A stretch of 32,467 nt of DNA from a virus. The notes under the pieces are model-generated. The model made no database searches. It saw nothing but the letters and a program-made list of their open reading frames with translations, and was not told the DNA's origin. Position numbers and translations under genes: made by a program. The stretch lies in the IMG/VR virus record IMGVR_UViG_3300045988_047216, positions 1 to 32,467 of that record. One strand, 5' to 3'. Below, one piece after another: positions 5,361-31,494 of this stretch (position 1 is the stretch's first letter; each line of letters opens with the position of its first letter).

Positions 5361-7793
5361 ATGGATTTAAAGAAAATGATTTTTAAAATAGCTACGGCCA
5401 CGAGCGCAAAGTCGGTAACATGGAAGAACCGTAACTTTACGTGGGATGAGCTTGTACAGAGGTTCACCAGTGCTAAAGTGACCGAAGAAACATACAAGGA
5501 GTTCATAAGTGCAAGCAAAGCCGAGCAAGGAAATATAAAGGACGTCGGCGCGTTCATTGGAGGCGAACTGTTCGGCAGTCGCCGCAATAAGAATAATGTC
5601 GGTGAGCGTACATTGATGGCACTGGATATTGATTTCGGAGAGGTTGATTTTCCGGACAGATTTTTTGCAACGATGGGATGCGCCTGTATAATCCACGGTA
5701 CACACAAGCATAACCCTAAAGCAGGAGTTTTGCGTTACCGGGTTATTATACCGTTATCCGAACCGGTAGACAGTGAACAATACGAGGCGTTATCCCGTAA
5801 AGTGGCTGAGCTTACAGGCATAGACTTGTACGACCGTACCACGTTCCAACCCGAACGGTGTATGTTTTGGCCGTCCGTGTCCAAAGACGTTGATTTCGAT
5901 TTCACTGATTATTCACAGGTATGTGACGAACCGTTGGACGTCCAAAAGTATCTCGGCTATTACGACAATTGGCGCGATACGACCGAATGGGCATATCATA
6001 GAGACGAGAAAGGCGAAGTAAGGTCACTTGCAAAGCAGCAGCAAGACCCTACGTTGAAAGACGGCGTAGTTGGCGATTTCTGCCGCGCATACAGCATTTC
6101 GGAAGCTATATCCATGTATTTGTCGGACGTGTACGAACCGACCGAGAAACCCGACCGTTGGACGTTTACAGGAGGTACTACTTCCGGTGGTATGCTGACG
6201 TTTGACGATATGTTCGCCTATTCTTTCCACAACAACGACCCTATACAAGGAAACCATGTGTTCAACGCGTTCGACCTTGTGAGGGTTCACCTATATGGCA
6301 AGATGGAGAAAAAAGCGAGCATGGAAGCTATGTCTGAACTGGTGAACAAGGATGTGAAAGTAGCGGCCGGACGTGCGCAACGTTTGGCAGTCAAGGCGAT
6401 GGATACGGTCAACGATTTTGAGGACATAATCGAGGCCGAGGTAGTAGAGCAGAATTTGCCGGATACCTCATATGAAAATGCGATGTCCGAGTTAGAGACC
6501 GACAAACGCGGGAATTATTTGCCGAGCGCAAAGAACCTCAGCTTAATCATGCGGTACGACCCGAAATTGCAAGGGCTTATAGCACGAGACCTGTTCAAAG
6601 AACGCCGCGTAGTTACTCGTGTTCCTGCATGGCGTCCGAAAGATAGCACGTCCGATTTTCAAGATGTAGACTTTGCAGGTGTGCGGAAACACATAGAAGA
6701 CGTGTACGGCATAACAGGCAGCGCAAAGATTGATGATGCCATTGCATTGGCGGCTGAAAACAACTCGTTCCATCCCGTGCAGGACTATCTTACAGGGCTG
6801 ACATGGGACGGCGTTAAACGGGTGGACACAGCCCTTATTGATATAATGGGCGCGGAAGACACAATATATACCCGTGAAGCATTTAGAATAATGCTTATCG
6901 GCGCGGTTAAACGTATATTCCAAAAGGGATGTAAGTTCGACAGCATGCTCGTTCTGCAATCAGACCAAGGAGCAGGAAAGAGTACCTTTCTAAAGAAGTT
7001 AGGTCGCGGTTGGTTTTCTGACAGCCTGTCTAATATGGATGGCAAAGGAGCGTTTGAACAGTTACAGGGACATTGGATAATCGAAGTTGCCGAACTGTCT
7101 GCCATGCGAAAATCAGAGGTAGAAATGGTCAAGAACTTTATAACGAAGACAGAGGATAGTTTCAGACCTGCATACGGTCGAGTTACGAAGAACTTTCCGC
7201 GCCAATGTGTATTCTTCGGTACGACCAACAAAGACGAGTTTCTAAAAGACTCTACCGGTGGCAGGCGTTTTCTCCCTGTGCGATGCAAGGTTAACGAAAA
7301 CACTCCGAAGATATTCGCAAAGGATTTCGAGGAATATGTAGACCAACTTTGGGCTGAGGCAGTCCAGATGTACTACAGCAAAACCAGCACGTTGTTATCA
7401 CCCGAAGCAGAAGCGTTGGCAGAGCAGTACCGTGAGGAGCACTACGAAAGCGACCCACGCTCATGTGCAGTTCAGAAGTACGCCGAGATGTATGTACCAT
7501 TTGATTGGGAGAAACTTAACTCATTGGAACGAAAGATGTATTTTGCCAATTATGATGAGTCTGAGGTTGACAAGTCGAAGTGCATGCTTATAGACTTTCT
7601 GAGCGTGCCTGCAGTTCTTATTGAAGCACTCGACATAGAGGTAGGGAAGATAAAGCGGACGGATGCCGCAGACGCGGCCGCAATCCTCAGTAAATTAAGC
7701 GGTTGGGAACGCTCTGTAAGACGTAACAAGGCCTACGGTCAGCAACGCGGGTACGCTCGAATAGTTAACGAACCTTTGGAAAATAACGATTAA
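5361..7793 (+). CDS. bifunctional primase-polymerase (AEP-like N-terminus) / VirE-D5-type SF3 helicase
   Basis: The N-terminal half has LMALDIDF (DxD) and IIHGTHKH. The C-terminal half has Walker A DQGAGKST, Walker B WIIEVAEL and motif C FFGTTN, as in VirE (PF05272)-type phage primase/helicases. Confidence 0.85.
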   Translation: MDLKKMIFKIATATSAKSVTWKNRNFTWDELVQRFTSAKVTEETYKEFISASKAEQGNIKDVGAFIGGELFGSRRNKNNVGERTLMALDIDFGEVDFPDRFFATMGCACIIHGTHKHNPKAGVLRYRVIIPLSEPVDSEQYEALSRKVAELTGIDLYDRTTFQPERCMFWPSVSKDVDFDFTDYSQVCDEPLDVQKYLGYYDNWRDTTEWAYHRDEKGEVRSLAKQQQDPTLKDGVVGDFCRAYSISEAISMYLSDVYEPTEKPDRWTFTGGTTSGGMLTFDDMFAYSFHNNDPIQGNHVFNAFDLVRVHLYGKMEKKASMEAMSELVNKDVKVAAGRAQRLAVKAMDTVNDFEDIIEAEVVEQNLPDTSYENAMSELETDKRGNYLPSAKNLSLIMRYDPKLQGLIARDLFKERRVVTRVPAWRPKDSTSDFQDVDFAGVRKHIEDVYGITGSAKIDDAIALAAENNSFHPVQDYLTGLTWDGVKRVDTALIDIMGAEDTIYTREAFRIMLIGAVKRIFQKGCKFDSMLVLQSDQGAGKSTFLKKLGRGWFSDSLSNMDGKGAFEQLQGHWIIEVAELSAMRKSEVEMVKNFITKTEDSFRPAYGRVTKNFPRQCVFFGTTNKDEFLKDSTGGRRFLPVRCKVNENTPKIFAKDFEEYVDQLWAEAVQMYYSKTSTLLSPEAEALAEQYREEHYESDPRSCAVQKYAEMYVPFDWEKLNSLERKMYFANYDESEVDKSKCMLIDFLSVPAVLIEALDIEVGKIKRTDAADAAAILSKLSGWERSVRRNKAYGQQRGYARIVNEPLENND

Positions 7794-7848
7794 AGTTAAT
7801 AAACTGTTAAATATAGGCGAAGAAGATACAACGTATTGTGTAAACGCC

Positions 7849-7856
7849 TATATTTG
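7849..7856 (+). promoter_or_regulatory. Bacteroidota-type -7 box TATATTTG
   Basis: Exact TAnnTTTG match 35 nt upstream of ATG 7891. It overlaps the 3' arm of an inverted repeat, ATATAGGCG (7811-7819) with CGCCTATAT (7845-7853). Confidence 0.55.
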
Positions 7857-7890
7857 CAGTATAATATTAATCTAAAAAACAATAACTATT

Positions 7891-9417: not shown

Positions 9418-9743
9418 TAAGCGAGAAAGCACTGGAAAAAACATTCAGTGCTTATCTTAACCAGACAAAAAGGGTGTGGGTAATAAAACTATTATCCACC
9501 TTTGTTAAAGGTCTACCAGACCGTTTAATTCTGTGCCGTGGTGGTTTTGTAGGATTTGCCGAGATAAAGACTACAGGTAAAAAACCTACAAAGATACAGA
9601 CCTACATTCATGGCAAATTGCGCGCTTTGGGATTTCCCGTGTTCGTGATAGACGATATAGAGAGTAGGGATGCTGCAATAAGATATTTCTTAAACAACGT
9701 TAAGGAAATAACCAACGTATCCGGCAAACCATTATCTTTGTAA
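9405..9743 (+). CDS. VRR-NUC domain nuclease
   Basis: GLPDRLILCRGGFVGFAEIKTTGKKPTKIQ gives a PD..(E)xK core followed by a conserved Q, then LRALGFPVFVI. The size (~110 aa) and the pairing with an SNF2 helicase are typical. Confidence 0.7.
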   Translation: MQEIVSEKALEKTFSAYLNQTKRVWVIKLLSTFVKGLPDRLILCRGGFVGFAEIKTTGKKPTKIQTYIHGKLRALGFPVFVIDDIESRDAAIRYFLNNVKEITNVSGKPLSL

Positions 9744-9767
9744 TATAACATTAAAACCAATAAATAT

Positions 9768-13452: not shown

Positions 13453-13867
13453 ATTCATAGACATAGCGTATTCGATGAATGTGCATGTCTTTATAATATG
13501 GGAGTTCATAAGGCGATATGGCTATGAACGAGGCGTGAGAAAGGATAAGTACGGCCGTGGCGATGTGAGTGCTGTAGCGTGCCGCAAATGGATACACAAG
13601 CTATACGAGTATATACAGGAACAGGATTTCTCGTATAAGCAGGATGTAAACAAGCGGCAATATATTTTCCGAGACGAGAAGCGTTTGGCCGAAGAGAAAC
13701 GTAACGAACAGGACGTGAAACGCGTGTACTCAGTTGATAAGGATGGTAATATCATCCGCACGACACTGTTAGGACAGGACGGTGATACAGGCCAAGTACA
13801 CAGGTGGGATGTGTACATCCAAGGATGGAAATATGTGAAAACGATATTATTCATTAATAAAAAGTAG
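13430..13867 (+). CDS. hypothetical protein (last gene of the early/replication arm)
   Basis: Long + strand ORF followed by a strong terminator. The start is ambiguous (ATG 13430 or in-frame ATG 13475). No motif recognised. Confidence 0.5.
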   Translation: MISPIRVKFIDIAYSMNVHVFIIWEFIRRYGYERGVRKDKYGRGDVSAVACRKWIHKLYEYIQEQDFSYKQDVNKRQYIFRDEKRLAEEKRNEQDVKRVYSVDKDGNIIRTTLLGQDGDTGQVHRWDVYIQGWKYVKTILFINKK

Positions 13868-13910
13868 CAATTTGTAAGGACAATATAGCTTTACACATTG
13901 ATAGGTAATC

Positions 13911-13952
13911 GGGCTTATTTGATAATAAAATGTCAAATAAGCCCGTTTGTTT
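13911..13952 (+). terminator. rho-independent terminator
   Basis: A 12-bp perfect stem, GGGCTTATTTGA (13911-13922) with TCAAATAAGCCC (13933-13944), is followed by GTTTGTTT. Confidence 0.7.
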
Positions 13953-14058
13953 ATGGTTTTCTCAGCAAATCGCAGCCAAAATGCGAATGTAAATCTGTGT
14001 ATTCAAGTGTATTATTTTGTTAATCAAAAATTATTTACGGATTTTACAAGATTTTGCA

Positions 14059-14535
14059 AAATGTTTACGTTATTTTATTTACATCCCTAAAATCTGTCAC
14101 GGATAACTGATTGAGATACAGCAAGTTAAAAAAGTACGAAAATGGCTTTGTCACGGATAACTAATTGAGATACAGTGTTTTAGCTAAAATAGAAAAATGT
14201 TGATGTCACAGGTTTGTCACAACTTTAGTCACAGCTAACTTATTGATACATACCTATTTATATCTACTGTGACAACAAAGTATATATTTTATATAAAAGA
14301 GTATATTGGAAAACATCATAGAATTGCAATGTAGAGATAGCAATTATTGCTAAATTCACCCTACAGAAGTGTTTAGGGCGTTTTCTGTGTCACATACTGG
14401 GTTTTTTCTTGTAAGTGATTGATAGGCATGTAGTTATCCGTGACAAATGTTGTTACAAATGTTGTTACAAGCTTTTGTTAGTTTGTCACACTTGAGATAA
14501 GTTGCTGATTGATAGGTTGTTATCCGTGACAAACG
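14059..14535 (+). repeat. non-coding module copy A: TGTCAC/GTGACA site array with nested inverted 13-mers, a diverged direct repeat of 30932-31405
   Basis: TGTCAC lies at 14095, 14149, 14204, 14215, 14388 and 14484, and GTCAC at 14228. GTGACA lies at 14269, 14440 and 14526. TGTCACGGATAAC lies at 14095-14107 and 14149-14161, with its exact reverse complement at 14433-14445 and 14519-14531. No credible ORF. Confidence 0.85.
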
Positions 14536-14689
14536 TTGTTTGTAAAGAAAAGCTGCAAGAGATGCAGGTTTGAAAACGGATTCTGGGTATATTGTAGGCC
14601 ACAAACATACTACAAAGATGTGTATAAACAAACTGGTAGGCGGTCGGATTGAGAACTGGGCACTAATTGCTTTTGTGTTATAGGTGATG

Positions 14690-14697
14690 TACTTTTG
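14690..14697 (+). promoter_or_regulatory. Bacteroidota-type -7 box TACTTTTG
   Basis: Exact TAnnTTTG match 68 nt upstream of ATG 14765. A TTTG lies at 14672-14675. Confidence 0.45.
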
Positions 14698-14764
14698 TGT
14701 CGTTCGCGTATACTTTATTAATGTCGCGCGCGCATTATTTAGAACGATTATAAATAAGAAAGAT

Positions 14765-15388
14765 ATGGCTGGAAAGCGAGAAAAGGGTGATAAGGGTCTA
14801 ACTAAAGACGCTCCGAAGAATAAAGCTACGGGCGTTGCACCCATCCCCAAAAGTGAGATAACCCAATGCACACAACTATACGAGGTTGTACAAACACGAG
14901 GCCTGAAAGGGGTCACACTAAGCAGCATGGAGGAATGTATTAATTATGTGGCTGAGTACATGCAGTTCTGTAGGGATAACCCGTACTTCACGCAAGAAGT
15001 GATAAAGGGCGGCGCTTTGGCCGGTACTACTGTCCCTATAGAGAAGAAACGCGCGGCGACGCCTCAAGGCTTTTGTCTGTTTATCGGATGGAGCATAAGA
15101 ACCTTTAATAAGAATATGGAAAGACTTGAAAAGCTCACGAACGATGGAGACACCGAGGCGGAAATATTGCTGCTCGGTTACGCCCTTATAAAAGAGATAC
15201 TAACCAACGATATGGACGAAGCAGCGTTGGCCGGTCTGGTAGACGCTTCGTATATGGCTCGATTGCGCGGTTTGCGTGACCTTAAGGATGTAACCAGCAA
15301 TGGTAAAGAAGCAGGCACGAAAGCCATGCAGATTAATGTGCTGTCTACCGAGGCGGTCGAGAACCTTAAGAAGTTAGGAGGTATCTGA
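14765..15388 (+). CDS. terminase small subunit (gp3-packaging-like)
   Basis: Its stop overlaps the TerL start (TGATG). It has a basic N-terminus. EECINYVAEYMQFC...TPQGFCLFIGWSIRTFNKN resembles the helix-turn-helix core of DNA-packaging gp3/TerS families. I chose ATG 14765 rather than the track's upstream non-ATG start at 14684. Confidence 0.65.
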   Translation: MAGKREKGDKGLTKDAPKNKATGVAPIPKSEITQCTQLYEVVQTRGLKGVTLSSMEECINYVAEYMQFCRDNPYFTQEVIKGGALAGTTVPIEKKRAATPQGFCLFIGWSIRTFNKNMERLEKLTNDGDTEAEILLLGYALIKEILTNDMDEAALAGLVDASYMARLRGLRDLKDVTSNGKEAGTKAMQINVLSTEAVENLKKLGGI

Positions 15389-16533
15389 TGAACGTTACGT
15401 TCACATTTGAAAAGCTGTTGGCCGCGTTCGTCAATCCGCGTATCCGCGGTGTGGCGAGCAAGGGCGGTACTCGTTCGGGCAAAACGTGGGCTGTGATGCA
15501 ACTTCTTCACCTGCTTTGCAAACAGACCGATAAGCCGCTTATCGTATCGTGCGTGGCCGCAACGCTGCCGATGGTTAAGCGAGGCATGCAGCGCGACTTT
15601 AAAACGATGCTGCTTGCTGAAAACGATTGGGAAGAGGAACGGTTTAATAAATCCGAGGGAACTTATACCTATCCTAATGGAAGCATGATAGAATTTTTCG
15701 GTGTCGACAATGCAAGCAAGGTTCACGGGTCTGCCCGCGATGTGCTGTTCGTCAATGAGGCTCAGAGCGTACCACGCGAGATATTCCGGCAGCTTGACAT
15801 CCGTACCCGTAAGAAAGTTATCATTGACTTTAACCCGGTTCGCAAATTTTGGGGCGAAACGGAGTTCGTAGGCGACCGATACGTCACTATCCGTTCGACT
15901 TATAAGGATAATCCCTATCTGAGCAAGGAACAGGTTAGCGCGATAGAGAAGAACCGTAACGATGCTAACTGGTGGCGCGTATATGGCGAGGGCGAGACAG
16001 GCGGTGTAGAGGGCAACGTCTACCCGGAATATGATGTTATCGAGGACATGCCGGAAACGTTCACAGGCCGATGCCTCGGGCTCGACTTTGGGTTTGTCAA
16101 TGACCCGACCGCGATAGTTGATATTCGATTTCAAGGATGGGATTTATATGTTGACTTGCTTTGCTACGAAACTGGACTGCTCAATTCGCATATCGCCGAG
16201 TACTTGACCGCCAATTCAATCAACCGCGTAGTGACGGTGTGCGATAATGCCGAGCAAAAGTCTATTGCCGAACTACAGGCAAAGCGTGTAAAAGCAATGC
16301 CATGTATCAAAGGACGCGGTTCGGTCGCTGGCGGTATCGCGCAGGTCAAACAGTTTAGATTGCACGTCACCAAGCGATCGGTCAAGCTATTGGACGAGCT
16401 TGATAACTATAAGTGGATAAAAGACGAGGCAACCGATACATACACCAACGAGCCGATAGACGCGTGGAACCATGCGTTGGACGCATTGCGATACGGAGTT
16501 GATTATTTAATTAGAAAATACCGACCGAAATGA
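15388..16533 (+). CDS. terminase large subunit (compact, PBSX-like)
   Basis: Walker A is GGTRSGKT and Walker B with the catalytic Glu is VLFVNEAQ. The RNaseH-like nuclease acidic motifs are GLDFGF, VCDNAE and HALDALRY. Confidence 0.9.
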   Translation: MNVTFTFEKLLAAFVNPRIRGVASKGGTRSGKTWAVMQLLHLLCKQTDKPLIVSCVAATLPMVKRGMQRDFKTMLLAENDWEEERFNKSEGTYTYPNGSMIEFFGVDNASKVHGSARDVLFVNEAQSVPREIFRQLDIRTRKKVIIDFNPVRKFWGETEFVGDRYVTIRSTYKDNPYLSKEQVSAIEKNRNDANWWRVYGEGETGGVEGNVYPEYDVIEDMPETFTGRCLGLDFGFVNDPTAIVDIRFQGWDLYVDLLCYETGLLNSHIAEYLTANSINRVVTVCDNAEQKSIAELQAKRVKAMPCIKGRGSVAGGIAQVKQFRLHVTKRSVKLLDELDNYKWIKDEATDTYTNEPIDAWNHALDALRYGVDYLIRKYRPK

Positions 16534-17141
16534 TAAAATTTATTAAAAACATGGGATTTAAGTTCAGTATGCTGTACAACCGCAAACTGTTACTGAGAAT
16601 AGCCAACATGCCTGCTGACGGCACAGTAGCTCTCACCAAGGACGAAGAGAAGTTGCTAACCAAAATGGTTAAGTACATCCAACCGTCACAAGTAGTAACC
16701 CGAAATGGCAAAGCTGTGTTCCGCTTTAAGAGCATTGAGGAAATAGGCCTGTGGGACATTTTAGAGACGCGCAGGGCTGAAACGCCTATCGGACGCATAG
16801 AAGCATGGACGAACTTCAATTATTCGCCCACAACGATTGCTGACGCTGCAAAAGCGGACAAGTATATTGTGCAGCAGTTAGAGATCGCGGACGGTCTAGA
16901 GCAGGTGATATTCCAGAACATGCGTAACACAGGCGAAAGCGCATTGACAGGCACGGAAGAGATCAAGCAGGCAAAGAACTTGCTCGGTCTCGTACAGGTC
17001 ACTGCAGAACTGTTTCATTGCTCGTTTGAGGACGCAAAAAAGATGAACTACTCCGATGCCATGTTGGCTATTGCCAAACGCAATGACGAAATCGAAAAGG
17101 AGAAAAAAGAACTTAAGAAACAACAATCTAAATACAAGTGA
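16530..17141 (+). CDS. hypothetical virion-module protein
   Basis: ATGA overlap with the TerL stop. No motif recognised. Confidence 0.6.
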   Translation: MIKFIKNMGFKFSMLYNRKLLLRIANMPADGTVALTKDEEKLLTKMVKYIQPSQVVTRNGKAVFRFKSIEEIGLWDILETRRAETPIGRIEAWTNFNYSPTTIADAAKADKYIVQQLEIADGLEQVIFQNMRNTGESALTGTEEIKQAKNLLGLVQVTAELFHCSFEDAKKMNYSDAMLAIAKRNDEIEKEKKELKKQQSKYK

Positions 17142-17142
17142 T

Positions 17143-17541
17143 ATGAGTTTTGGAGACATACTTAACAGAGCAAGCACGCGGGCGTCCCAATTGGGAAAGG
17201 CCCTTGTGTTCGGGCCTACGGAGGTTCAGAACGTAGCCGCCAACGATATCAGCGATGATTTTTTCACGTTAGACGTGTCCGGTGGTTCGTACATGGATAC
17301 CAATGTACCTAATACCGTGGCATACACGATAGTTATTCGCTGCATGGGTATATCCGCTTATATGCGCGATGACGCTGTAGAGATAGACACGCTGGTTCGC
17401 ACCGACCTGCTATTGCAGGATTTCTTGAAAACGTTCATCTGTACATCCGAGGTGAGCAACATTCGCATCAGCAAGGTTCAAAACCAATACGATAGCATAA
17501 AATCAGGATGGGAAGCAGTGTTGGATGTGTACCAGACTTAA
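17143..17541 (+). CDS. hypothetical virion-module protein
   Basis: In-frame ATG 17143 lies 2 nt after the upstream stop (MSFGDILNRAST). The longer track ORF (17056) would overlap its neighbour by 86 nt. Confidence 0.55.
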   Translation: MSFGDILNRASTRASQLGKALVFGPTEVQNVAANDISDDFFTLDVSGGSYMDTNVPNTVAYTIVIRCMGISAYMRDDAVEIDTLVRTDLLLQDFLKTFICTSEVSNIRISKVQNQYDSIKSGWEAVLDVYQT

Positions 17542-17570
17542 TAAGGTTTGCTTTGCCGGTAGTAGCTTCG

Positions 17571-17578
17571 TACTTTTG
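17571..17578 (+). promoter_or_regulatory. Bacteroidota-type -7 box TACTTTTG
   Basis: Exact TAnnTTTG match 24 nt upstream of ATG 17602, in a 60-nt gap inside the otherwise tightly packed structural operon. Confidence 0.45.
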
Positions 17579-17601
17579 TCGGAAACTTAATCGTCGACTA
17601 T

Positions 17602-17949
17602 ATGAAAATCATAAGAAACAACTTCATCCCTTTTCCGGGTTTTAAGGCTATCAACTTGTTTGGTATCCTGTTTGTGCGTGGCAACGCTACAATCAGTCAA
17701 GAAGTGATTAACCATGAGAGTATACACACAGCTCAAATGAAGGAGATGCTTTACATACCGTTCTATCTGTGGTACTGCATTGAATACGTTTATCGTATGT
17801 TCTGGTATGCGAAAAAATCGAATAAGCCCAAAGCCAAAGACCCGTACCATGCACTGAGCTTTGAACGCGAAGCGTATCAAAACGAGAACACGCCCGACTA
17901 TCTCGAACATAGGTCTTTCTGGGCATGGACAAAATACTTTAAGTACTAA
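17602..17949 (+). CDS. small HExxH protein, DUF4157-like putative zinc metallopeptidase domain
   Basis: AINLFGILFVRGNA...VINHESIHTAQM has HExxHxxQ preceded by a G..I.F..G segment, then FEREAY downstream. This pattern matches my recollection of DUF4157. The protein is only 115 aa. Confidence 0.55.
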   Translation: MKIIRNNFIPFPGFKAINLFGILFVRGNATISQEVINHESIHTAQMKEMLYIPFYLWYCIEYVYRMFWYAKKSNKPKAKDPYHALSFEREAYQNENTPDYLEHRSFWAWTKYFKY

Positions 17950-18383
17950 TGGACAGCGAAGTAGTTAAAATAGTGCGAGGCGTTCGCGATGAAATCGTAG
18001 CTAACTACTACCGCATGAAGTTGAACGCGTCCGGCGAGTTTGCCGAAAAGACACAGGTAATTGAAGACGGTGGAAGCATTAAGATAGTCGCGCCTGCCTA
18101 CATTTACCAGATGGAAGACGGTCGCCCGGCTGGCACTATGCCGCCCGTGTCCGTTATCAAGAAATGGATACGGGACAAGAACGCCAACGCTGGGACCGAT
18201 ATACCTGAAAGCGCGGCATGGGCTATCGCGTACCACATCAAAAAGGACGGTATAAAAGTTCCTAACGATTATAACGCAGGTGGCGTAGCGAGCAGTATCC
18301 TTAACCCGGAACTGATAAAGCGGATTACCGTAGAAATCAACCGCATAGCCGCGGCGAGAATATTAACGATTTTAACTAAATAA
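17949..18383 (+). CDS. hypothetical virion-module protein
   Basis: TAATG overlap with the upstream ORF. No motif recognised. Confidence 0.55.
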   Translation: MDSEVVKIVRGVRDEIVANYYRMKLNASGEFAEKTQVIEDGGSIKIVAPAYIYQMEDGRPAGTMPPVSVIKKWIRDKNANAGTDIPESAAWAIAYHIKKDGIKVPNDYNAGGVASSILNPELIKRITVEINRIAAARILTILTK

Positions 18384-18385
18384 TT

Positions 18386-19372
18386 ATGATAGTCAGAAAC
18401 TTACTAAACAACGCTGCTGCATCTGGAAATGGTACACTCACTTTGCAAGGCATAGGCGCGGGCATATACAGCCCTGTCCGTTTTGAGAGCGTTGGCAGCG
18501 TTACTTCTATCCGACTCATATACTATCGGGGTGGTTCGTCCTCGGGCGTGTATGCAACTGTCATACCATACGAGAATACCGTAGTCGATGTATCGTCTAT
18601 GGCTTCGGCCGTGCCATCTATAATGGAAGTGACTAAAACGTCCGCAGGCAGTGTATGGGATTATATACTGGTTAACTACGTGGAAAACGGAACGACCTAT
18701 AATCTCACTTTGCAGATAGTTAACTGTTCTTCTGCCTATGCAAGATACGCTACAAGTTCCGGGTCTAACGATCTGAGTGACTACGGAAACGGAAAGTTCA
18801 ACCGTTTGGATAGTGTAATAAGTTTCGTATCGCCTCTTACAGGGCAACCTTTCAACAATAAAGTGATGTTCGGTCAGACAGCGAATTCACAATCTTTGCA
18901 GGCCGGTGGTTCTAACCTGTCAAACGGGTATATGTGGAATGTCGGCAACCCTACCGGGATAACTCTTTTGAATAATGGCGGCAACATTTGGGGTTACATA
19001 TCCTACGAACGCAAACAACCGTATTGCGCCGATGCCAATAAACGTGTTACGCTTAAATGGCTTAACTCTTATGGCCTGTACGATAGCATGTACTTCTTGC
19101 AATACCGTATCCAGCCTACCTATCAGACCAACTATTCGGGTGGCAACCGCGTAGCGTCTTATAACGTAACGGTTAGCGTAGTGGTTACGGGCGATAATGA
19201 GAAAGCATTATACTGGTTATCACGGTCGGCCGATGTGCAAGGCGTGTTCCCAATAGCGACTAACCAATGGGCTAAAGTAACCATAACCAACCCGACCGCG
19301 TTCAACTCACAAGGTGGCGCATTGGGACGTACCGTTAGTTACACATGTAAGTTTGAAATCGTAGAACCTTAA
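18386..19372 (+). CDS. hypothetical structural protein (tail/adsorption candidate)
   Basis: The composition is rich in Ser/Thr/Gly/Asn and looks beta-rich. Its position upstream of the tape-measure-like gene supports a structural role. No motif recognised. Confidence 0.55.
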   Translation: MIVRNLLNNAAASGNGTLTLQGIGAGIYSPVRFESVGSVTSIRLIYYRGGSSSGVYATVIPYENTVVDVSSMASAVPSIMEVTKTSAGSVWDYILVNYVENGTTYNLTLQIVNCSSAYARYATSSGSNDLSDYGNGKFNRLDSVISFVSPLTGQPFNNKVMFGQTANSQSLQAGGSNLSNGYMWNVGNPTGITLLNNGGNIWGYISYERKQPYCADANKRVTLKWLNSYGLYDSMYFLQYRIQPTYQTNYSGGNRVASYNVTVSVVVTGDNEKALYWLSRSADVQGVFPIATNQWAKVTITNPTAFNSQGGALGRTVSYTCKFEIVEP

Positions 19373-19377
19373 AGATT

Positions 19378-20985
19378 ATGGAAGTTAATATTAGAATAAA
19401 CGGAGTCAAGTTAGACGGCGTATCGGCAGGGGCGGTTAAATTGAATATCAACAACCCAGACCCGTTCTCGTTTTCTGACCCTACCGTCAGTTATACAGGC
19501 AGTATCGAAGTACCACGGTCACAAGTCAACGACCGTGTGTTCCGTGCTGACCGGTGGCCGTGGATGTTCACGCGTACCGCACCTTACACGGCAGAACTGG
19601 ACTTTGGAGGACTTTCGGCTCCACGAGGCAGTAATGCCTACCGTGCACAGGTGACAGTTAACCCGGACAGCTATTCAATTACTTTGGTTGAAAGCGTTAC
19701 AAAGCTGTCAAGCATACAAGGAGGCGTAATCGCCAAACCTTATGACGAGACACAGTTTGGGTTGTGGTGGGCGAATAGCTACGACTCGGCACTTGCATAC
19801 GCTTATAACAGTCAGTTGACACGTCCGTCTCTGTTTAACTTCGGTAGCGTGTTCGTTTATCCGGGTTATACGGCTGAGAAAAAAGAAACAACGGCAGGTA
19901 GCCTTGTAGGTTCCGAGAGCCAGTTAGCCTATCGTATTGGGCACGATTACTTGCTCGGTGCTCGCTATCCGACTACAGATATGATTGCGCTGGATAACAA
20001 CGTTGCTTGTGCTTTGGAGCGCATGACAGGTTCGACATTCACGCTGACATTCACACAGGACTGCTTCGTGTGGCTACCTGCTTCGACTGGTAAGACCGTT
20101 TATCTCGGTAGTAATCGCTCAACTGGTAGTATCGCAATGACACGTGACACTTCGGTAATCATTAATGCCAATTACAAGCATAAGATTGCTGCCGGGTCAA
20201 GCCTCGTAGTACAACCTGTTGCCGGAAATAGCACCCTGTTCCATATACGAACAACTACGGCCACTACGTCAACCAAGATAACACCTGCTACTAACGTACC
20301 GACAGGTGAGGGTTACTATTTCAGTTTCGAGATAACCGCAGTAGGTGCTGAGGCTTATAGTAAGATGTTAGCACCCGACACAGGGTTTACCAGCGCATAC
20401 GACCTTGTACAAGCATATTGTAAGGCATTTTTCTGGACTTATGATTTCCGGCCGTTTCCGTTCGCTATTGAACTTAAGCCCTACATAAATACCTCAGCGA
20501 TAAACATATACCGTCAGATATGGACTGGTAAAATAGACATGGACTCAGTGAAGATAGGCGAACCGTCTGGCATTGCAAGGACGTACAAGAGTACCGCAGG
20601 TGAGGCCGTATGTATAGTCGATGGCTCTGTGAGAGCGATGGCCTCACAGGGTCAAGGTGCTGAGAGTTCAATGCCCGTCTCGTTCGGAGAACCGCCATTC
20701 GCCACGATGTACCATCTGACTGGGGGCTTGCCTTACAAGAATTCGTTCTACATAAGCGCATCCGGCTACCGTGCAAGGGCTGAGGCTCATTACAAGTGGT
20801 TCACACCCGGATGGCAGGTGAGCGCAAAAATGAGGTTGTCTTATTTCGACATTCTGAATATGACGTCTGACGGCCTGTATTTCGTAGGTGAATTAAACAG
20901 TTGGTTCTATCTCCGTGCAATCCAGAACTGGAATGCGGCCGATTCAACCGCAACATGTACATTAATCGCAGTTAACAATTCATAA
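19378..20985 (+). CDS. hypothetical structural protein (tail/baseplate or receptor-binding candidate)
   Basis: 535 aa with a beta-rich composition, ending 2 nt before the tape-measure-like gene. The function is inferred from context only. Confidence 0.55.
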   Translation: MEVNIRINGVKLDGVSAGAVKLNINNPDPFSFSDPTVSYTGSIEVPRSQVNDRVFRADRWPWMFTRTAPYTAELDFGGLSAPRGSNAYRAQVTVNPDSYSITLVESVTKLSSIQGGVIAKPYDETQFGLWWANSYDSALAYAYNSQLTRPSLFNFGSVFVYPGYTAEKKETTAGSLVGSESQLAYRIGHDYLLGARYPTTDMIALDNNVACALERMTGSTFTLTFTQDCFVWLPASTGKTVYLGSNRSTGSIAMTRDTSVIINANYKHKIAAGSSLVVQPVAGNSTLFHIRTTTATTSTKITPATNVPTGEGYYFSFEITAVGAEAYSKMLAPDTGFTSAYDLVQAYCKAFFWTYDFRPFPFAIELKPYINTSAINIYRQIWTGKIDMDSVKIGEPSGIARTYKSTAGEAVCIVDGSVRAMASQGQGAESSMPVSFGEPPFATMYHLTGGLPYKNSFYISASGYRARAEAHYKWFTPGWQVSAKMRLSYFDILNMTSDGLYFVGELNSWFYLRAIQNWNAADSTATCTLIAVNNS

Positions 20986-20986
20986 T

Positions 20987-23491
20987 ATGGCAGACCAAGT
21001 AACATTATTAGACCTTTCGTTCGACACGTCGGGCGCATTAGACGGGCTGGACGCGCTTATCGCGAAATCGTTAGAACTGGCCGAGCAAAAGAAGCAGTTG
21101 AGTGCCGCGTTGAAAGACGAACAGGCACAGGTAAATGCCGCAGCAAAAGCATACAAGGCGGGTTCTATATCGCAGGAAGAATATCGAAAGATAGTTTCCA
21201 ACTCGACTAAAGCCCAGACCGACCTAACCAAGCAGATGATAGAGACTAACAAGTCTATATCGGATAACAACTCTGAAATCAAGGTCAACACTACTTTACT
21301 GACAAGTCAAGAAACGAGTGTTAACGCACTCCGTGCCCAACTTGCAAAGAATACTAAGGAGTTGAACGCCATGAGCGCGGCAACGCGTAACAATACGGCT
21401 GAGGGTCAGAAACTTGTAACCGAGACAAAGGAAATCTCCGACAAATTAAAGGAGATGGAGAAAGCCGCAGGCGACACGAGACGAAACGTAGGTAACTACG
21501 CGGAAAGCGTGCAGGAAGCTTTATCCAGCACCAAAGGTCTGTCGGGTGCAACGGGTACGCTGGCCTCGAGCATGTCGGGCGCGGTAGGCTCAGTCAAGGC
21601 ATTTACTTCGGCTTTGCTTGCTAACCCTATCGTTGCTATCGTCGGCCTCGTGTTAACGCTCATATCGACTATCGAGAAGCTGATGAAGCGCAACACGGAG
21701 ATGGCTACTAACCTGAAAGCCGCGTTCGCGCCGTTCGAGGTCATATTTTCCCGTATTCTGGATGGCATCACGGAACTTTTGAATGGTGTCGCAAAGGCGA
21801 TTGACTGGGTATCAACTAAAGTAGTGTCCCTGTTATCATCCATCGGGCTTATATCGGAAGAGACAGCAAAGGCCGCTAACGCGGCAAAAGAGTTGACGAA
21901 GCAAGAGCAGGCCATCTATGAGGCGCAAACCGATTCGATAGTCACTTTGTCCGAGATGTCTCGCGAGTTGGCAAACCAAAAGACCATTATCGCAGACCAA
22001 ACCAAGTCAGTTAAGGAAAGAAACGCCGCTGCTAACCAAGGATTGTCAGTATTGAAGCAGATGCAGAACATAGAGGTTGGCATCCTGCAGCAGCAGTATG
22101 AACAGATAAAAGCTCAGAACGAGTTAAGCTATACGAGTGCCGAGGACAGGCGTAAAGAGATGGAAGCTCTTGCAGCATTAAATGCTAAAAAGGCCGAGTA
22201 TGCAGATAAAGAGAGGGAGCTTATCTCTCAGAGAAGTTCATTCGAGGCTCAGGAAACCGCTAAAAACTCAGCAGCGGCACAAGCTGCAGAACTTGCAAAG
22301 GCTAATGCAGCCGTTAAAGCATCTCAGGAAGCTGAGAAAGCCAAACGAGAGATGCAGGCTGAGACTATCAAGCAGATGGAAGTGGCGTTAACCACGCTCG
22401 ACCTGTCAATCAAGGAACGCGAGTTGAACAGCAACACCACGGCAGATAAGCTTAAGAACCAAGAAGAATATAACGCTGAAAGTCTTAAGTTGGAAAAATA
22501 CCGCTTGGAACAGGGTTTGATAACCCAACAGGAATACGATAACAAAGCAACCCAACTGAGACTGCAAGAGTTACAAACTCGGCAGCAATTAGAGGCTGAG
22601 CAGGAGAAGCTAAATCAAGAACGCAAAGCAATGGACGAGGCCAACCGTAAAGAGTTGGAAATGTCTAACGTAGCTAACGAGTATGAGATGCGGCAGGCAC
22701 AGTTGGACGCCCAGTATCAGCAAGAGTTGGCAGCAGCCGAGAGGATAGGCGCGGATACTACATTGGTTCAGCAGAAGTATGAGAAAGCCAAAGAAGACCT
22801 AACCAAAGCGCGTGTTAACGCTGAGTTGACAATGACAGCCGGGTTGGCAGGTCAGATGTCCGACCTGCTCGGTGAAGAGAGCGCAGCAGGTAAAGCGTTT
22901 GGCGTTGTGCAGGCCACAATCAACACGTACCTCGGTGCGACCAAAGCACTGGCGCAGGGCGGTATACTCGGTATCGCACAGGCGGCTATCGTTATCGCGT
23001 TCGGTATGAAGCAGGTTCTTTCCATTGCCAAACAGAAAGACCCTGATACGAAAATTAACACAAGTGTTAAAAAGTATGCAAAAGGCGGACAGATTTACGG
23101 CAAATCCCATGCGCAGGGCGGTGTAACATTTAGAGGTGATAACGGTCAGGTATTCGAGGCCGAGGGCGGTGAAAACATTTACATTATGAAGAAGACCGCG
23201 AGCGCCGAGATTAATGCTCTGTCGGCTCTGAACGAGGCGCACGGTGGCAATTCCTTTGCAACGTCTGGCTTATACAAGTTTGCCGATGGCGGTATGGTAG
23301 CGAGCATCTCGGAAGCGAACCGCGCCGTTAGACAGATGGATAACGTTAAGCTATCCAATGAAACCATCAATCAATTGGCAGGTGTCGTTATCGGAGCAGT
23401 CGCGAGCATGCCTAACCCGGTAGTAGCTGTGCAGGATATAAACACAGGTCAACGCGATGTAGCTGTCGTGCAGGATTTATCGAGATATTGA
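20987..23491 (+). CDS. tape-measure-like / internal virion protein (long coiled coil with hydrophobic segments)
   Basis: 834 aa dominated by Ala/Gln/Glu/Lys heptad-like sequence. There are two hydrophobic stretches (ANPIVAIVGLVLTLISTI and GILGIAQAAIVIAFGM). The Gly-rich C-terminal region has recurring xGGx (AKGGQI, AQGGVT, AEGGEN, AHGGNS, ADGGMV). Confidence 0.55.
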   Translation: MADQVTLLDLSFDTSGALDGLDALIAKSLELAEQKKQLSAALKDEQAQVNAAAKAYKAGSISQEEYRKIVSNSTKAQTDLTKQMIETNKSISDNNSEIKVNTTLLTSQETSVNALRAQLAKNTKELNAMSAATRNNTAEGQKLVTETKEISDKLKEMEKAAGDTRRNVGNYAESVQEALSSTKGLSGATGTLASSMSGAVGSVKAFTSALLANPIVAIVGLVLTLISTIEKLMKRNTEMATNLKAAFAPFEVIFSRILDGITELLNGVAKAIDWVSTKVVSLLSSIGLISEETAKAANAAKELTKQEQAIYEAQTDSIVTLSEMSRELANQKTIIADQTKSVKERNAAANQGLSVLKQMQNIEVGILQQQYEQIKAQNELSYTSAEDRRKEMEALAALNAKKAEYADKERELISQRSSFEAQETAKNSAAAQAAELAKANAAVKASQEAEKAKREMQAETIKQMEVALTTLDLSIKERELNSNTTADKLKNQEEYNAESLKLEKYRLEQGLITQQEYDNKATQLRLQELQTRQQLEAEQEKLNQERKAMDEANRKELEMSNVANEYEMRQAQLDAQYQQELAAAERIGADTTLVQQKYEKAKEDLTKARVNAELTMTAGLAGQMSDLLGEESAAGKAFGVVQATINTYLGATKALAQGGILGIAQAAIVIAFGMKQVLSIAKQKDPDTKINTSVKKYAKGGQIYGKSHAQGGVTFRGDNGQVFEAEGGENIYIMKKTASAEINALSALNEAHGGNSFATSGLYKFADGGMVASISEANRAVRQMDNVKLSNETINQLAGVVIGAVASMPNPVVAVQDINTGQRDVAVVQDLSRY

Positions 23492-23534
23492 TTTAATAAA
23501 CTCATGTAGAGATGGTAGTTAAAAACCAACTATC

Positions 23535-23542
23535 TATCTTTG
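23535..23542 (+). promoter_or_regulatory. Bacteroidota-type -7 box TATCTTTG
   Basis: Exact TAnnTTTG match 70 nt upstream of ATG 23612. It lies inside the inverted repeat AACTCATG (23499-23506) with CATGAGTT (23543-23550). Confidence 0.45.
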
Positions 23543-23611
23543 CATGAGTTACAACTACAAGTGCACTTGCTAACTATATGTTATCATACTGCACTATAAA
23601 AAATAGTAAGA

Positions 23612-24598
23612 ATGATTTTTGAAAAACTGAGAATTATAGAGGCCGGACAGACCGCTAACTTTGGCGAGTGGGACGGACAGATGTACCCGTTGGTTATGAC
23701 TGACGAGGCCGTTCGCAGCGTTGTAACTTTGGGAAATGCCAAACCAGTACATTGCAGACGTACCCACAATGGAACTGACATGTTGGACGGATATCTCGGA
23801 AAGTTCGTTAACTTCGTTTATGAGGATGGCGTAGCCTATGCAGATTTCGAGATGTCTGAGGCACTTGAAACCGCCTATCCACAAGAGGCAAAGTTTATCG
23901 AAACCATGATATTGAAAGAACCAGATATGCTCGGTGTTTCGGTCATGGGTCTGGATAATAGAGAATTAAACGGTGAAAGCATAGACGTTACCAACTTCGC
24001 AGAATTGTACTCATGCGATATTGTAGGTCTTCCTGCCGCTACTACAAGTCTATATAGTAATAATCAAAAAGAAAAAACAATGAACAAATTTTTCAGTGCT
24101 TTTGCATCTATGCTAAAGAAGAGCAGCTACGCCACTGAGACGGTAGAAACCGTATCCGGCGACAAAATCACGATCGAGGCCGAGGGTGAAGTTATGGCAA
24201 TCGGTGACAAAGTATTTGACGATGCAGGAAATCCGCATCCTGATGGCGAGGTTCGTATCAAGGTCGGCGAGTCAATTCTTGTATTACGTATCGAAGACGG
24301 ACGTATTGCCGAGGTAAAACCATCCGAAGACCCTCGCGGTGAGCAGGAGGACGAAATCAGAGACGAACGCGAAATTGGTCGCGAGACATCTCGTGTACCC
24401 GATGAATTTGCAGCCCGTTTTGAGAAAATGGAACGCAGCCTGTTCGTAATGGGAAAGACTTTGGAAAGTATCAATGCCCAGTTCGGCAAGGTTACTCCAA
24501 AACCTAATACGCCTACCGGTGGTATGCCTACAAGCGGCAAAACGAAGCTCAGTAAAGAGGCCGTAGCCGAGGCTGCAAAGAAGTTCTACAATCGCTAA
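23612..24598 (+). CDS. capsid scaffolding protein, possibly GPO-like protease-scaffold fusion
   Basis: It lies immediately upstream of the capsid gene. The N-terminal half loosely parallels P2 gpO as I recall it (RIIEAG..DG, a His in RRTHNG, GVSVMG, IVGLPAATTS). The C-terminal half is charged and helical (EQEDEIRDEREIGRE). Confidence 0.5.
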   Translation: MIFEKLRIIEAGQTANFGEWDGQMYPLVMTDEAVRSVVTLGNAKPVHCRRTHNGTDMLDGYLGKFVNFVYEDGVAYADFEMSEALETAYPQEAKFIETMILKEPDMLGVSVMGLDNRELNGESIDVTNFAELYSCDIVGLPAATTSLYSNNQKEKTMNKFFSAFASMLKKSSYATETVETVSGDKITIEAEGEVMAIGDKVFDDAGNPHPDGEVRIKVGESILVLRIEDGRIAEVKPSEDPRGEQEDEIRDEREIGRETSRVPDEFAARFEKMERSLFVMGKTLESINAQFGKVTPKPNTPTGGMPTSGKTKLSKEAVAEAAKKFYNR

Positions 24599-24620
24599 CC
24601 TTTAAAAAGAAAAAGAAATT

Positions 24621-25565
24621 ATGGCTTTTACATTCACAGACTTAAACAAACTTAACCTTAACTCACTGAGTGAGGTTATATCACTTACTGTAGGACTGGC
24701 AGGGGAACTTGCAAACGGCTTGACTGTCCTTAACGGTATCGCTAACAACACACCTGTTGTTTCTCTTACTGCTGCTGACAAGGCATTGCGCAAATCCGCA
24801 GGTTGTAACGGTACTTACTTCTACGACGCTATCAGCGACAAAACGAAGTATTACACACATGCGCCTATCGAACTGCCTATCGAAATCTGTTTGCAGTCAT
24901 TGTGGGGAAAGATGGTAGCCAAAGGCATCAACTTGGACGACAATTTCTCTGAAACAGAGTTGGCAGGCTTCATTCAAGCAGAAGTATTGAAAGTATTGGA
25001 AGCTGACTTGCTTCGTCTGTCTTGGTTGGACGGTGACGTTACCGAAAAAGCTACTGGTTACGGCATCTTTACTTTGGGTGGTTTTATCAAACAGTTCGAA
25101 GATTCAACAATGACCGCAGGTGCCTTGACTCTTACCACTGAGGGAGTTCTTGCAGCTTTGCGCGCTTGTGTTGACGGACAAAGACCAGACGAGTTAGATA
25201 ACTCCGAGTTCTTCGTTTCATCTAACGTTATGCGTCTTTACAAGAACCTGTTGGAAGATAAGGGCAACAGTGTTGCACAGAGCTTCTTGGTTGATGGCCG
25301 CCCCGTGTACTATTTCGAGGGATACAAGGTTACTGAACTTCGTCACGTGTCTAACGCAGCGTTGACCGATGGTAACAACACAGCGTTCATTGCGTTTACT
25401 CCGAAAACCAACCTGCATCTGGCAATGGAAAGTTCAGCAGTTTCAATCGCTCCGTTCGTGCAAGACGCGAAGAGCAGAAACTACTACTCACAGACTTTGT
25501 TTGCAGCAAGTGCCATGTTGGTAGCACCGGAAAAGATGCAATTGTATCTTACGGCTCGCGCATAA
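24621..25565 (+). CDS. major capsid protein (candidate)
   Basis: 314 aa, directly after the scaffold gene and followed by the strongest terminator in the genome. The assignment rests on position and size, not on a recognised motif. Confidence 0.6.
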   Translation: MAFTFTDLNKLNLNSLSEVISLTVGLAGELANGLTVLNGIANNTPVVSLTAADKALRKSAGCNGTYFYDAISDKTKYYTHAPIELPIEICLQSLWGKMVAKGINLDDNFSETELAGFIQAEVLKVLEADLLRLSWLDGDVTEKATGYGIFTLGGFIKQFEDSTMTAGALTLTTEGVLAALRACVDGQRPDELDNSEFFVSSNVMRLYKNLLEDKGNSVAQSFLVDGRPVYYFEGYKVTELRHVSNAALTDGNNTAFIAFTPKTNLHLAMESSAVSIAPFVQDAKSRNYYSQTLFAASAMLVAPEKMQLYLTARA

Positions 25566-25586
25566 GCGAAACTAATATTCACTAAC

Positions 25587-25622
25587 AAAAGGGTTTGGGA
25601 CTTAAAACCCAAACCCTTTTTA
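25587..25622 (+). terminator. rho-independent terminator
   Basis: A 13-bp stem, AAAAGGGTTTGGG (25587-25599) with CCCAAACCCTTTT (25608-25620), has a T-run included. Confidence 0.8.
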
Positions 25623-25634
25623 ATTAATAATATT

Positions 25635-26162
25635 ATGGCAAGAAATTGTTTAAATAAAATATCCGCAGGCTTTCCTACTACATGCGCACTGCCTGTACAC
25701 GGTATTAAAGAGTTATACCTTATATACCCAGAGGATGTTACGATAGCAAGGGCCTCGGATAACTCTTGGCGGAAGGTCACATTTACGACCTCAGGAAAGA
25801 GCTATAAAATAGAGGGGTATAAACAGAATATACAGATAACATCGTCTTTGAGAAGTTTAGACGCTTCTAATAAATTTGATGTGTCTGTTATGTTCAAAGT
25901 TCCATATACAAGACACGCGGATTTGGCATCTATGCTTATGAATAGGTTTTATGTTGTTGCCGTTCCGAATGACCTTAACGCGCATCCGGCTGTGTGTTTA
26001 GGTGATACCAGCCCGTTAGAAATGACCGCCGCCGATTGGGACAGCAATGCGAATGGAACATTACTAACTGTAACGTTATCCGCGCCTGACGGTTCGGCAG
26101 GAAATTACTTACTGCCTGTAGAATCCACAGCCTTAACAGCAATAATCTCAAAAGCATCTTAA
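25635..26162 (+). CDS. structural-module paralog 1 of 3
   Basis: The N-terminus MARNCLNKISAGFPTTC aligns with paralog 2 (MACISKLSAGFAYDC). It shares GI(K/E), I..ED(V/I) and K(S/A)YKI(E/D). Confidence 0.6.
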   Translation: MARNCLNKISAGFPTTCALPVHGIKELYLIYPEDVTIARASDNSWRKVTFTTSGKSYKIEGYKQNIQITSSLRSLDASNKFDVSVMFKVPYTRHADLASMLMNRFYVVAVPNDLNAHPAVCLGDTSPLEMTAADWDSNANGTLLTVTLSAPDGSAGNYLLPVESTALTAIISKAS

Positions 26163-26164
26163 TT

Positions 26165-26707: not shown

Positions 26708-26729
26708 TTAAAGAAAGGAGAACAATACT

Positions 26730-27412: not shown

Positions 27413-27434
27413 TAATCTTATAAACAACTTTATA

Positions 27435-27806: not shown

Positions 27807-27808
27807 TT

Positions 27809-31405: not shown

Positions 31406-31459
31406 GTGTGACACTGTTAAACCTTGTTAATGAAATGTACAACCTATCGTTTTAATCCC

Positions 31460-31467: not shown

Positions 31468-31494
31468 CACCATAACAATTAAATAATAAAATGT

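Follow-up and report, generated by a model that had tools for sequence, protein, structure and literature searches.

The DNA analysed here, referred to as the window, comprises the 32,467 nucleotides of the IMG/VR virus record IMGVR_UViG_3300045988_047216 and represents a lytic Bacteroides siphophage, the circular genome of which (32.4 kb) is complete, as bases 1-55 are identical to bases 32413-32467. All genes of the window lie on the plus strand. The early/replication module (31495→13867) encodes two exonucleases, a gp2.5-like single-stranded DNA-binding protein, a family-A DNA polymerase, an 810-amino-acid (aa) primase-helicase, an HNH nuclease and a superfamily 2 (SF2) helicase, and the late module (14765-30903) encodes the small and large terminase subunits (terS, terL), a protease, a tape-measure protein, portal, holin and endolysin, as assigned by domain scans with PHROGs (40 open reading frames, ORFs) and Pfam (10 ORFs). 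Each gap between the two modules is occupied by an array of short repeated sites, termed iterons: array A at 14095-14531 and array B at 30968-31413. These arrays are probably bound by the C-terminal winged helix of the primase-helicase, and they probably function as origins of DNA replication.

The gap harbouring array A (13868-14764) has a G+C content of 33% compared to 44% for the genome, and the view of the initial annotation that it lacks a credible ORF holds. Reading the sequence from 13700 to 14900 and searching it for exact words recovered every site, repeat and coordinate previously listed for this region. The hexamer TGTCAC starts at 14095, 14149, 14204, 14215, 14388 and 14484, its complement GTGACA at 14269, 14440 and 14526, and a variant AGTCAC at 14227 (GTCAC at 14228). 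Longer repeats incorporate some of these sites: the 13-mer TGTCACGGATAAC occurs in forward orientation at 14095 and 14149 and as its exact reverse complement at 14433 and 14519, and a direct repeat of 27 nt (14095-14121 and 14149-14175) is 96% identical, with a single mismatch. TGATTGATAGG is found at 14416 and 14506, and AATGTTGTTACA is duplicated in tandem at 14446 and 14458. A repeat finder extends the inner inverted pair to a perfect 17-mer (14147-14163 and 14431-14447) with 267 nt in between. The palindrome ATTTTGCAAAAT (12 bp) at 14051, which had been listed along with these repeats, is present as well, but it is kept neither in the closest relative nor in the second array and is probably incidental.

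The initial annotation had made any function of the sites depend on their enrichment over the rest of the genome, and the sites are indeed tightly clustered. TGTCAC and its complement occur 24 times in the window, with nine copies in the gap of array A, nine in the second gap and six in the remaining ~31 kb. The degenerate word TGTMAC is found 48 times in the window as compared to 33.9 +/- 5.3 times in shuffled sequences, and a stretch of 438 bp contains 11 TGT(C/A)AC sites, compared to a background density of 0.80 per kb (Poisson P = 1.7e-13). Array A is organized into two arms, which flank an AT-rich centre:

14095-14274: left arm of array A, with six iterons at 14095, 14149, 14204, 14215 and 14227 (AGTCAC) in plus and at 14269 in minus orientation
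14275-14387: AT-rich centre of array A, 113 bp, with 60-nt windows down to 22% G+C and bordering iterons that are opposed
14323-14342, plus strand: invariant 20-mer ATTGCAATGTAGAGATAGCA in the centre of array A, identical in sequence and orientation in 11 phages with three iteron types
14388-14531: right arm of array A, with six iterons at 14388 (plus), 14440, 14452 and 14464 (all minus), 14484 (plus) and 14526 (minus)

Three iterons of the left arm adopt the long form TGTCAC-N3-TAAC, and the middle minus-strand iterons at 14440, 14452 and 14464 are spaced by 12 bp. The centre (14275-14387) is the proposed unwinding region. Among the 11 phages, the AT-rich DNA around ATTGCAATGTAGAGATAGCA varies and the 20-mer itself is fixed; it can fold into a small hairpin (ATTGC...GCAAT) and may serve in priming, in the binding of a host factor or as part of a promoter.

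A second, paralogous array is located half a genome away from array A. The segment 14059-14274 shares 82% identity with 30932-31147, the two gaps can be aligned over ~490 nt, and the whole ~450-nt architecture recurs at 30968-31413:

30968-31147: left arm of array B, 82% identical to the left arm of array A, with six iterons at 30968, 31022, 31077, 31088 and 31100 in plus and at 31142 in minus orientation
31148-31277: AT-rich centre of array B, 130 bp, with a conserved core of its own, TTCCAAAATAAGTATAAGG (31241-31259)
31278-31413: right arm of array B, with six iterons at 31278 (plus), 31318 (minus, AGTCAC), 31332 (minus), 31352 (plus), 31396 and 31408 (both minus)

Each array thus contains 12 iterons, the polarity of which reads +++++- / +---+- in array A and +++++- / +--+-- in array B, the slash marking the centre. 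The iterons follow the consensus TT-TGT(C/A)AC-A, approximately half of them extend to TGTCAC-N3-TAAC, and several adjacent iterons are 11-12 bp, i.e., one helical turn, apart. The centres are ~115-130 bp long with 22-32% G+C, and on the circle the arrays are separated by 16.9 and 15.5 kb. Arrays A and B are not simple duplicates, because the central element of array B, TTCCAAAATAAGTATAAGG, differs. The two closest relatives (L014, L015/L138) also carry this element in their B-type gaps, and it is weak in the group of phages using TGGCAC as iteron.

The outermost 13-mers were compared within array A (14095-14107 and 14519-14531), within array B (30968-30980 and 31390-31402) and in the closest relative (L002, on the same contig as L137). 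Their three-nucleotide spacers co-change on the left and the right side: both read GGA in array A and both AGA in the closest relative, and in array B the pair is ACG and ACC. This pattern suggests that gene conversion keeps the outer inverted pair evolving in concert, or else that recognition by the protein extends to the spacer. The co-change would also fit a different scenario, in which the inverted 13-17-mers bound a promoter segment that a site-specific recombinase inverts, as in a Bacteroides-style inverton, and so would the occurrence of perfect 17-bp inverted repeats 267 bp apart in a Bacteroides phage. However, the intervening segment has the same orientation in 11 of 11 genomes, no recombinase was detected among the 40 ORFs scanned with PHROGs and the 10 scanned with Pfam, and the same word is also used in direct orientation, 12 times per array, unlike the inverted repeats of an inverton. 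A promoter switch of this kind is extremely unlikely.

Related phages were collected from IMG/VR as 12 loci anchored on terS and 60 loci anchored on the primase-helicase with 10-kb flanks. A distant-mode DNA search of the gap against 50,697 GenBank phages yielded no match, scanning IMG/VR with the 17-mer retrieved one relative only, an IMG/VR scan with the promoter 14-mer AATGTACAACCTAT was too unspecific, with no relatives among the matches listed, and a search with an alignment of the last late gene produced no further loci. Cultured relatives include the Bacteroides uniformis and B. xylanisolvens siphophages EMB1, EMB2 and BU241P1, the primase-helicases of which are 72% identical to that of the window, as well as Phocaeicola vulgatus phages (58% primase-helicase identity). 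The functional claim of the initial annotation had also been staked on conservation of the sites in related phages, and this conservation is observed: among the 60 IMG/VR loci examined, every locus spanning both positions contains two non-coding gaps with clusters of a single word, one ~7 kb upstream and the other 6-9 kb downstream of the primase-helicase gene. All loci anchored on the primase-helicase that extend far enough towards terS include the array on that side. In the GenBank annotation both gaps are empty, including those of the EMB2 record, and a literature search for iterons of Bacteroides phages with a primase-helicase returned no paper.

The clustered word is specific for each lineage. 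TGT(C/A)AC is employed by the window phage and its three closest relatives, TGGAAC by one phage and TGGCAC by ten phages, and the members of the 72% clade use TGCACAG, TACACAG, GACACAG or TGACCAG. In these 7-mer groups, the word is found 4-6 times per cluster and approximately zero times in the other ~20 kb. In EMB2, five copies of TGCACAG fall within 5426-5625, five within 22945-23133 and one outside these clusters, and the Phocaeicola phage BV57P2 harbours 12 and 9 copies of GGAACA in the same two gaps. Overall, the arrays of the relatives comprise 4-12 iterons. Calling the top hexamer of each genome de novo suffered from noise, since some loci contain unrelated tandem repeats. Extra tandem repeats lie between array A and terS in some relatives of the 72% clade (L164:19700-19830, gap A of L191, and L185) and are absent from the window; examples are three copies of a ~36-nt unit that includes TAGTCCGA and, in L185, 17 copies of ATCCCG.

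When array A of 11 phages is aligned site by site, the hexamer (TGTCAC, TGGAAC or TGGCAC) is seen to be swapped at all homologous sites, and the TAAC half-site as well as the central 20-mer ATTGCAATGTAGAGATAGCA remain fixed while the hexamer changes. This pattern bears on the suggestion that the nested inverted repeats are long-range helices of a structured RNA, which would be a non-coding transcript of ~450 nt. RNAalifold predicts 70 base pairs for the 11 homologous arrays, 30 of which show pair-keeping changes on both sides, but the covariation term accounts for only -1.95 of -45.4 kcal/mol, and direct copies, which are unable to pair with each other, switch identically. The compensation is only apparent, because one repeated word switches in concert, direct copies included. 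Moreover, the arrays occupy the interval from a terminator to the next promoter, the motif changes together with a protein domain (see below), the array matches no Rfam family, and RNA genes were found in the window neither by an Rfam 15 scan at gathering threshold (0 matches) nor by ARAGORN. A structured RNA is therefore extremely unlikely.

The concerted replacement of ~20 sites per genome suggests a co-evolving DNA-binding protein. To identify candidates, ORFs were called in 61 genomes or loci and clustered by BLASTP, and 37 protein families were scored by asking whether the nearest homologue shares the DNA motif, using the minority motif groups of the recombining 72% clade. Whole-protein identity within versus between motif groups singled out no protein. 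By the nearest-homologue score, the primase-helicase alone among the 37 families tracks the motif type (0.81), followed at a distance by the next best real protein family (0.43), DNA polymerase (0.14), TerS (0.12) and the SF2 helicase (0.05); proteins flanking the gaps score at most 0.10, and a score of 0.75 on four members belongs to a spurious ORF within the array itself. The signal resides in the C-terminal part of the primase-helicase, the gene of which is organized as follows:

5361-7793, plus strand: primase-helicase-initiator gene, 810 aa, with an N-terminal primase, a VapE-like superfamily 3 (SF3) helicase and a C-terminal winged helix
7431-7790, plus strand: coding region of the C-terminal domain (aa 691-810), which co-varies with the iteron type
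7701-7766, plus strand: predicted beta-hairpin wing (aa 781-802)

Residues 691-810 score 0.88, compared to a mean of 0.11 and a maximum of 0.46 in 300 label permutations, and residues 1-690 score 0.21. Mutual information with the motif type peaks at residues 760-810. The discriminating segment reads GWERSVRRNKAYGQQRGY in the window (TGTCAC), GWERSRQRVKSYGQQRGF in the TGGCAC group, GWQRAANGKTVAGIGR in the TGCACAG group, GWKRSADAKSVMGIGR in the TACACAG group and GWQRAAGRRAVMGIGR in the TGACCAG group, and the motif-specific residues fall in the predicted beta-hairpin wing. The genes between the C-terminal domain and either array do not track the motif, and therefore, physical linkage does not explain the association.

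The same scores speak to a role in DNA packaging, which the initial annotation had considered given the neighbouring terS gene. Array A lies directly upstream of terS, and the array could be a pac site that is read by the small terminase subunit in headful packaging. Repeated boxes are typical of TerS recognition sites such as SPP1 pac or lambda cosB, and the boxes of the array resemble such sites in this respect. Among the relatives, the lytic phages EMB1 and EMB2 have circularly permuted genomes, and EMB2 has been reported to be a headful (pac) packager (PMC9584325). Yet TerS is 96% identical within and between motif groups, in line with its low score of 0.12, an equivalent array lies 16.9 kb from terS, with the duplication conserved across the family, and all sites switch with the C-terminal domain of the helicase instead. 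Recognition by TerS is thus very unlikely; the adjacency of terS had been over-weighted because the second array was not seen. The pac site may be located elsewhere in the gap (14540-14764) or within terS. Two further candidates were rejected: the circular permutation of the relatives (PMC9584325) argues against a cos site or terminal repeat, and the failure to find a ParB-like protein against a centromere or partition site.

The primase-helicase carries a VapE-like domain at aa 477-695 (Pfam, E = 3e-81), and primase families match its N-terminal part (PHROGs). A phmmer search of the PDB sequences returned 7pds_A as the sole match (E = 4.5e-75, aa 390-729), which represents the complex of Rep1 from the staphylococcal pathogenicity island SaPI1 with DNA (PMC9371898). 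An AlphaFold2 model built with 52 homologues reached a mean predicted local distance difference test (pLDDT) value of 85.7. At the C-terminus, two helices (749-756 and 766-777) are followed by a beta-hairpin (782-789 / 793-800), with pLDDT values of 83-90 over aa 749-800; this helix-helix-beta-hairpin arrangement is a predicted winged helix, of which the motif-specific segment would form the wing. Searching with the model, Foldseek ranked six 7pds chains first, with target-normalised template modelling (TM) scores of 0.84-0.87 and 31% identity. The alignment covers 444-457 columns of chains of 448-457 residues, and therefore, the whole of Rep1 including its C-terminal domain superposes. The primase-helicase is a homologue of the SaPI1 Rep self-loading helicase.

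SaPI Reps are SF3 self-loading helicases that double as replication initiators, and their C-terminal winged helix reads penta- or hexanucleotide iterons, of which 6-12 are present per origin (PMC9371898). The SaPI origin adjoins rep, directly downstream of the gene, and its AT-rich centre is flanked by no fewer than two iterons per side, which point in opposite directions; Rep binding and melting do not require ATP, and in SaPI5 a primase is fused to Rep (PMC9371898). The window phage resembles the SaPIs and other phage-inducible chromosomal islands (PICIs) in its homologous initiator (SaPI1 Rep1, SaPI5 PriRep5; PDB 7PDS, 7OLA) with a C-terminal winged helix as specificity module, in the SaPI5-like fusion of primase and helicase, and in hexanucleotide iterons of opposed orientation around an AT-rich centre, the specificity of which varies between related elements. 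Homology to self-loading SF3 helicases, the C-terminal winged helix, the iteron number and the AT-rich centre with opposed iterons all agree with the SaPI systems; the cognate specificity of Rep and iterons is seen by co-variation only. Since the anatomical features of such an origin are found and the protein is homologous to SaPI Rep, an origin, or an origin plus its cis partner, for a PriRep-type initiator is the best-supported reading of the arrays. The initial annotation had proposed an iteron field for a DNA-binding protein, with a replication origin among its possible roles, and both the co-variation and the SaPI Rep homology support this view; the binding protein, to which no identity had been assigned, now has a candidate in the C-terminal winged helix of the primase-helicase.

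By analogy to SaPI Rep, hexamers of the initiator would dock on the iterons via their winged helices. The AT-rich centre would then be melted by the initiator, with the helicase loading itself without a separate loader, and the fused primase domain would prime synthesis for the phage DNA polymerase. Physical binding and melting of the arrays by the initiator is what the homology would predict; both arrays may fire, or one may be a mere cis enhancer like crr of phage P4.

Several observations weigh against an origin read by the primase-helicase. The arrays are ~6.3 kb away from the initiator gene on either side, as the gene ends at 7793 and array A starts at 14095, and array B ends at 31413, where on the circle it precedes the gene start by 6.36 kb. 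Due to this distance and the presence of two arrays, the layout departs from a single origin directly downstream of rep. Furthermore, the position of the arrays between a terminator and the promoter of the next operon also suits a transcriptional role, and in the relatives the co-variation analysis covers proteins encoded within 10 kb of the primase-helicase. Three members of the TGCACAG group (L158, L163 and L178) possess divergent wings, so that at the resolution used wings and hexamers do not map one-to-one; flanking bases may distinguish the iterons of these three phages (e.g., TGCACAGAT), in which case the recognition unit would be longer than the 7-mer. The C-terminal domain alone (model pLDDT 67) gave no significant fold match (best E 0.058), the top of the list consisting entirely of winged-helix DNA-binding domains, including the C-terminal domain of 7pds. 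Finally, the cumulative GC skew is dominated by the strand bias of transcription and marks no origin.

Iteron origins that an SF3 initiator-helicase recognises through its winged helix are already known, as exemplified by SaPIs/PICIs. The duplicated, gene-distal layout in autonomous lytic Bacteroidales siphophages is unusual. Unlike the SaPIs, which are satellite islands of Gram-positive cocci, the window represents a 32-kb autonomous lytic Bacteroides siphophage, and instead of one origin abutting rep it harbours two mirror-like arrays at operon boundaries. These arrays are longer (~440 bp, 12 sites) than SaPI origins, several of their sites are composite (TGTCAC-N3-TAAC), and each array contains its own invariant central element.

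Other phages with paired replication regions offer further parallels. In the Bacillus phage SPP1, G38P reportedly binds oriL and oriR, where initiator boxes lie beside an AT-rich stretch (a finding ascribed to Missich et al. 1997), and G38P is said to be a replisome organiser that needs a loader and a helicase (G39P, G40P), with one origin inside the initiator gene. Like SPP1, the window phage is a lytic siphophage in which two paralogous regions, the probable origins, lie far apart, but its initiator is a homologue of self-loading SF3-type helicases and no separate loader is expected. In phage P4, the alpha protein, which is said to have a DnaG-type primase, reportedly binds ori and crr (work ascribed to Flensburg and Calendar 1987 and Ziegelin et al. 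1993, 1995). These two separated cis regions are reported to share the short iteron TGTTCACC in direct and inverted copies, and crr is described as two direct 120-bp repeats ~4.5 kb from ori. Judged by domain order, the window phage is likewise equipped with one primase-helicase-winged-helix protein and two separated cis regions with the same iteron; unlike crr, array B repeats the full succession of left arm, AT-rich centre and right arm. The domain order of P4 alpha is primase, SF3 helicase and C-terminal winged-helix origin binder (PMC2777425). In lambdoid O systems and iteron plasmids, initiator specificity and iteron sequence co-evolve, and the iterons lie beside an AT-rich unwinding element (PMC4980987). 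The window phage shares the co-evolution of initiator and iterons as well as the AT-rich element adjoining the iterons, but the initiators of these systems are not helicases, and their iterons are direct repeats of 17-22 bp, usually in or beside the initiator gene.

The two arrays might be non-redundant. Tentatively, they could constitute a conserved two-origin system, in which one initiator bridges (“handcuffs”) both arrays or fires them sequentially, array B with TTCCAAAATAAGTATAAGG being “early” and array A with ATTGCAATGTAGAGATAGCA being “late”. If true, such a system would couple the initiation of replication to the early-to-late transcription switch at the operon boundaries, and the approximately eight pairings of iteron and wing would amount to a readable code of winged-helix recognition, which sets the replication compatibility of co-infecting gut phages.

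The elements that surround the arrays also raise the question of transcriptional control:

13910-13945, plus strand: intrinsic terminator hairpin, which closes the early/replication operon directly upstream of array A
14690-14697, plus strand: Bacteroidetes-type -7 box TACTTTTG downstream of array A, conserved across iteron groups; probable late (terminase operon) promoter
14765-15388, plus strand: terS, small terminase subunit, adjoining array A and not implicated
31460-31467, plus strand: Bacteroidetes-type -7 box TATATTTG downstream of array B, member of a 53-nt promoter family; probable early promoter

Each array is thus positioned between the end of an operon and the next Bacteroidetes-type promoter, as would be expected of operator fields that control the early and late operons by means of a phage protein, which binds the arrays and loops between them. 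The protein could be the initiator acting as an autoregulator, similar to plasmid Rep proteins, or a separate factor. The different invariant cores of the two arrays, which might be operon-specific, and the overlap of one array B iteron with a TAnnTTTG match at 31016 would be in agreement with operators. However, no separate DNA-binding protein co-varies among the 37 families, the scanned ORFs include no recognisable transcription factor (PHROGs, Pfam), the co-varying protein is homologous to a helicase that initiates replication, and the succession of iterons, AT-rich centre and iterons is the layout of an origin. Control of the operons as the role of the arrays is rather unlikely, yet as a second function it may coexist with an origin through the same protein.

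Origins of replication are essentially unannotated in gut Bacteroidales phages. With the arrays viewed as origins of a PriRep-type initiator, both large non-coding regions of a widespread family of 32-37-kb siphophages, which infect Bacteroides uniformis, B. xylanisolvens and Phocaeicola vulgatus, gain a concrete and testable replication model. This model extends the self-loading helicase mechanism of SaPIs/PICIs from satellites of Gram-positive bacteria to autonomous lytic phages of another phylum. The matched variants of initiator wing and iterons provide a natural series to study the specificity of winged helices, replication incompatibility and recombination between co-infecting phages. 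For engineering purposes, the arrays are cis elements to keep, and they might be used to construct phage-dependent plasmids.

Some additional features of the genome deserve mention. Bacteroidetes-type TAnnTTTG -7 boxes precede plus-strand operons at 1493, 3308, 7849, 9733, 14690, 23535 and 31460, and the 53-nt promoter-like repeat family is represented at 7827-7879, 9711-9763 and 31438-31490. Together, the boxes and the 53-nt family suggest that the host belongs to the Bacteroidota and that its polymerase transcribes the phage genes; a sigma-70 promoter scan is not applicable to Bacteroidetes. The terminator at 13910-13945 shows a compensatory change in the closest relative, and a terminator scan of gap B detected none. 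Downstream of array A, the minus strand carries a TAnnTTTG box, TATGTTTG (14602-14609), which reads TATCTTTG in the closest relative. On the same strand, a terminator-like hairpin with a T-run follows (14553-14567), and these elements could specify a short antisense transcript in the interval that separates array A from the late promoter. The GC-rich element CGCGCGCGC (14725-14735), situated downstream of the probable late promoter and ahead of terS, reads GACCGCGCGCAC in phages of the TGGCAC group and might be a leader element of the late operon or part of pac. The 55-nt overlap of the window ends is located inside a 12-nt tandem repeat coding for (EQPV)n, within an ORF (32229→284) for an acidic early protein of 155 aa, and therefore, the copy number of this repeat may be an assembly artefact. 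The acidic (EQPV)n protein is the most divergent between clades, with 53% identity between motif groups.

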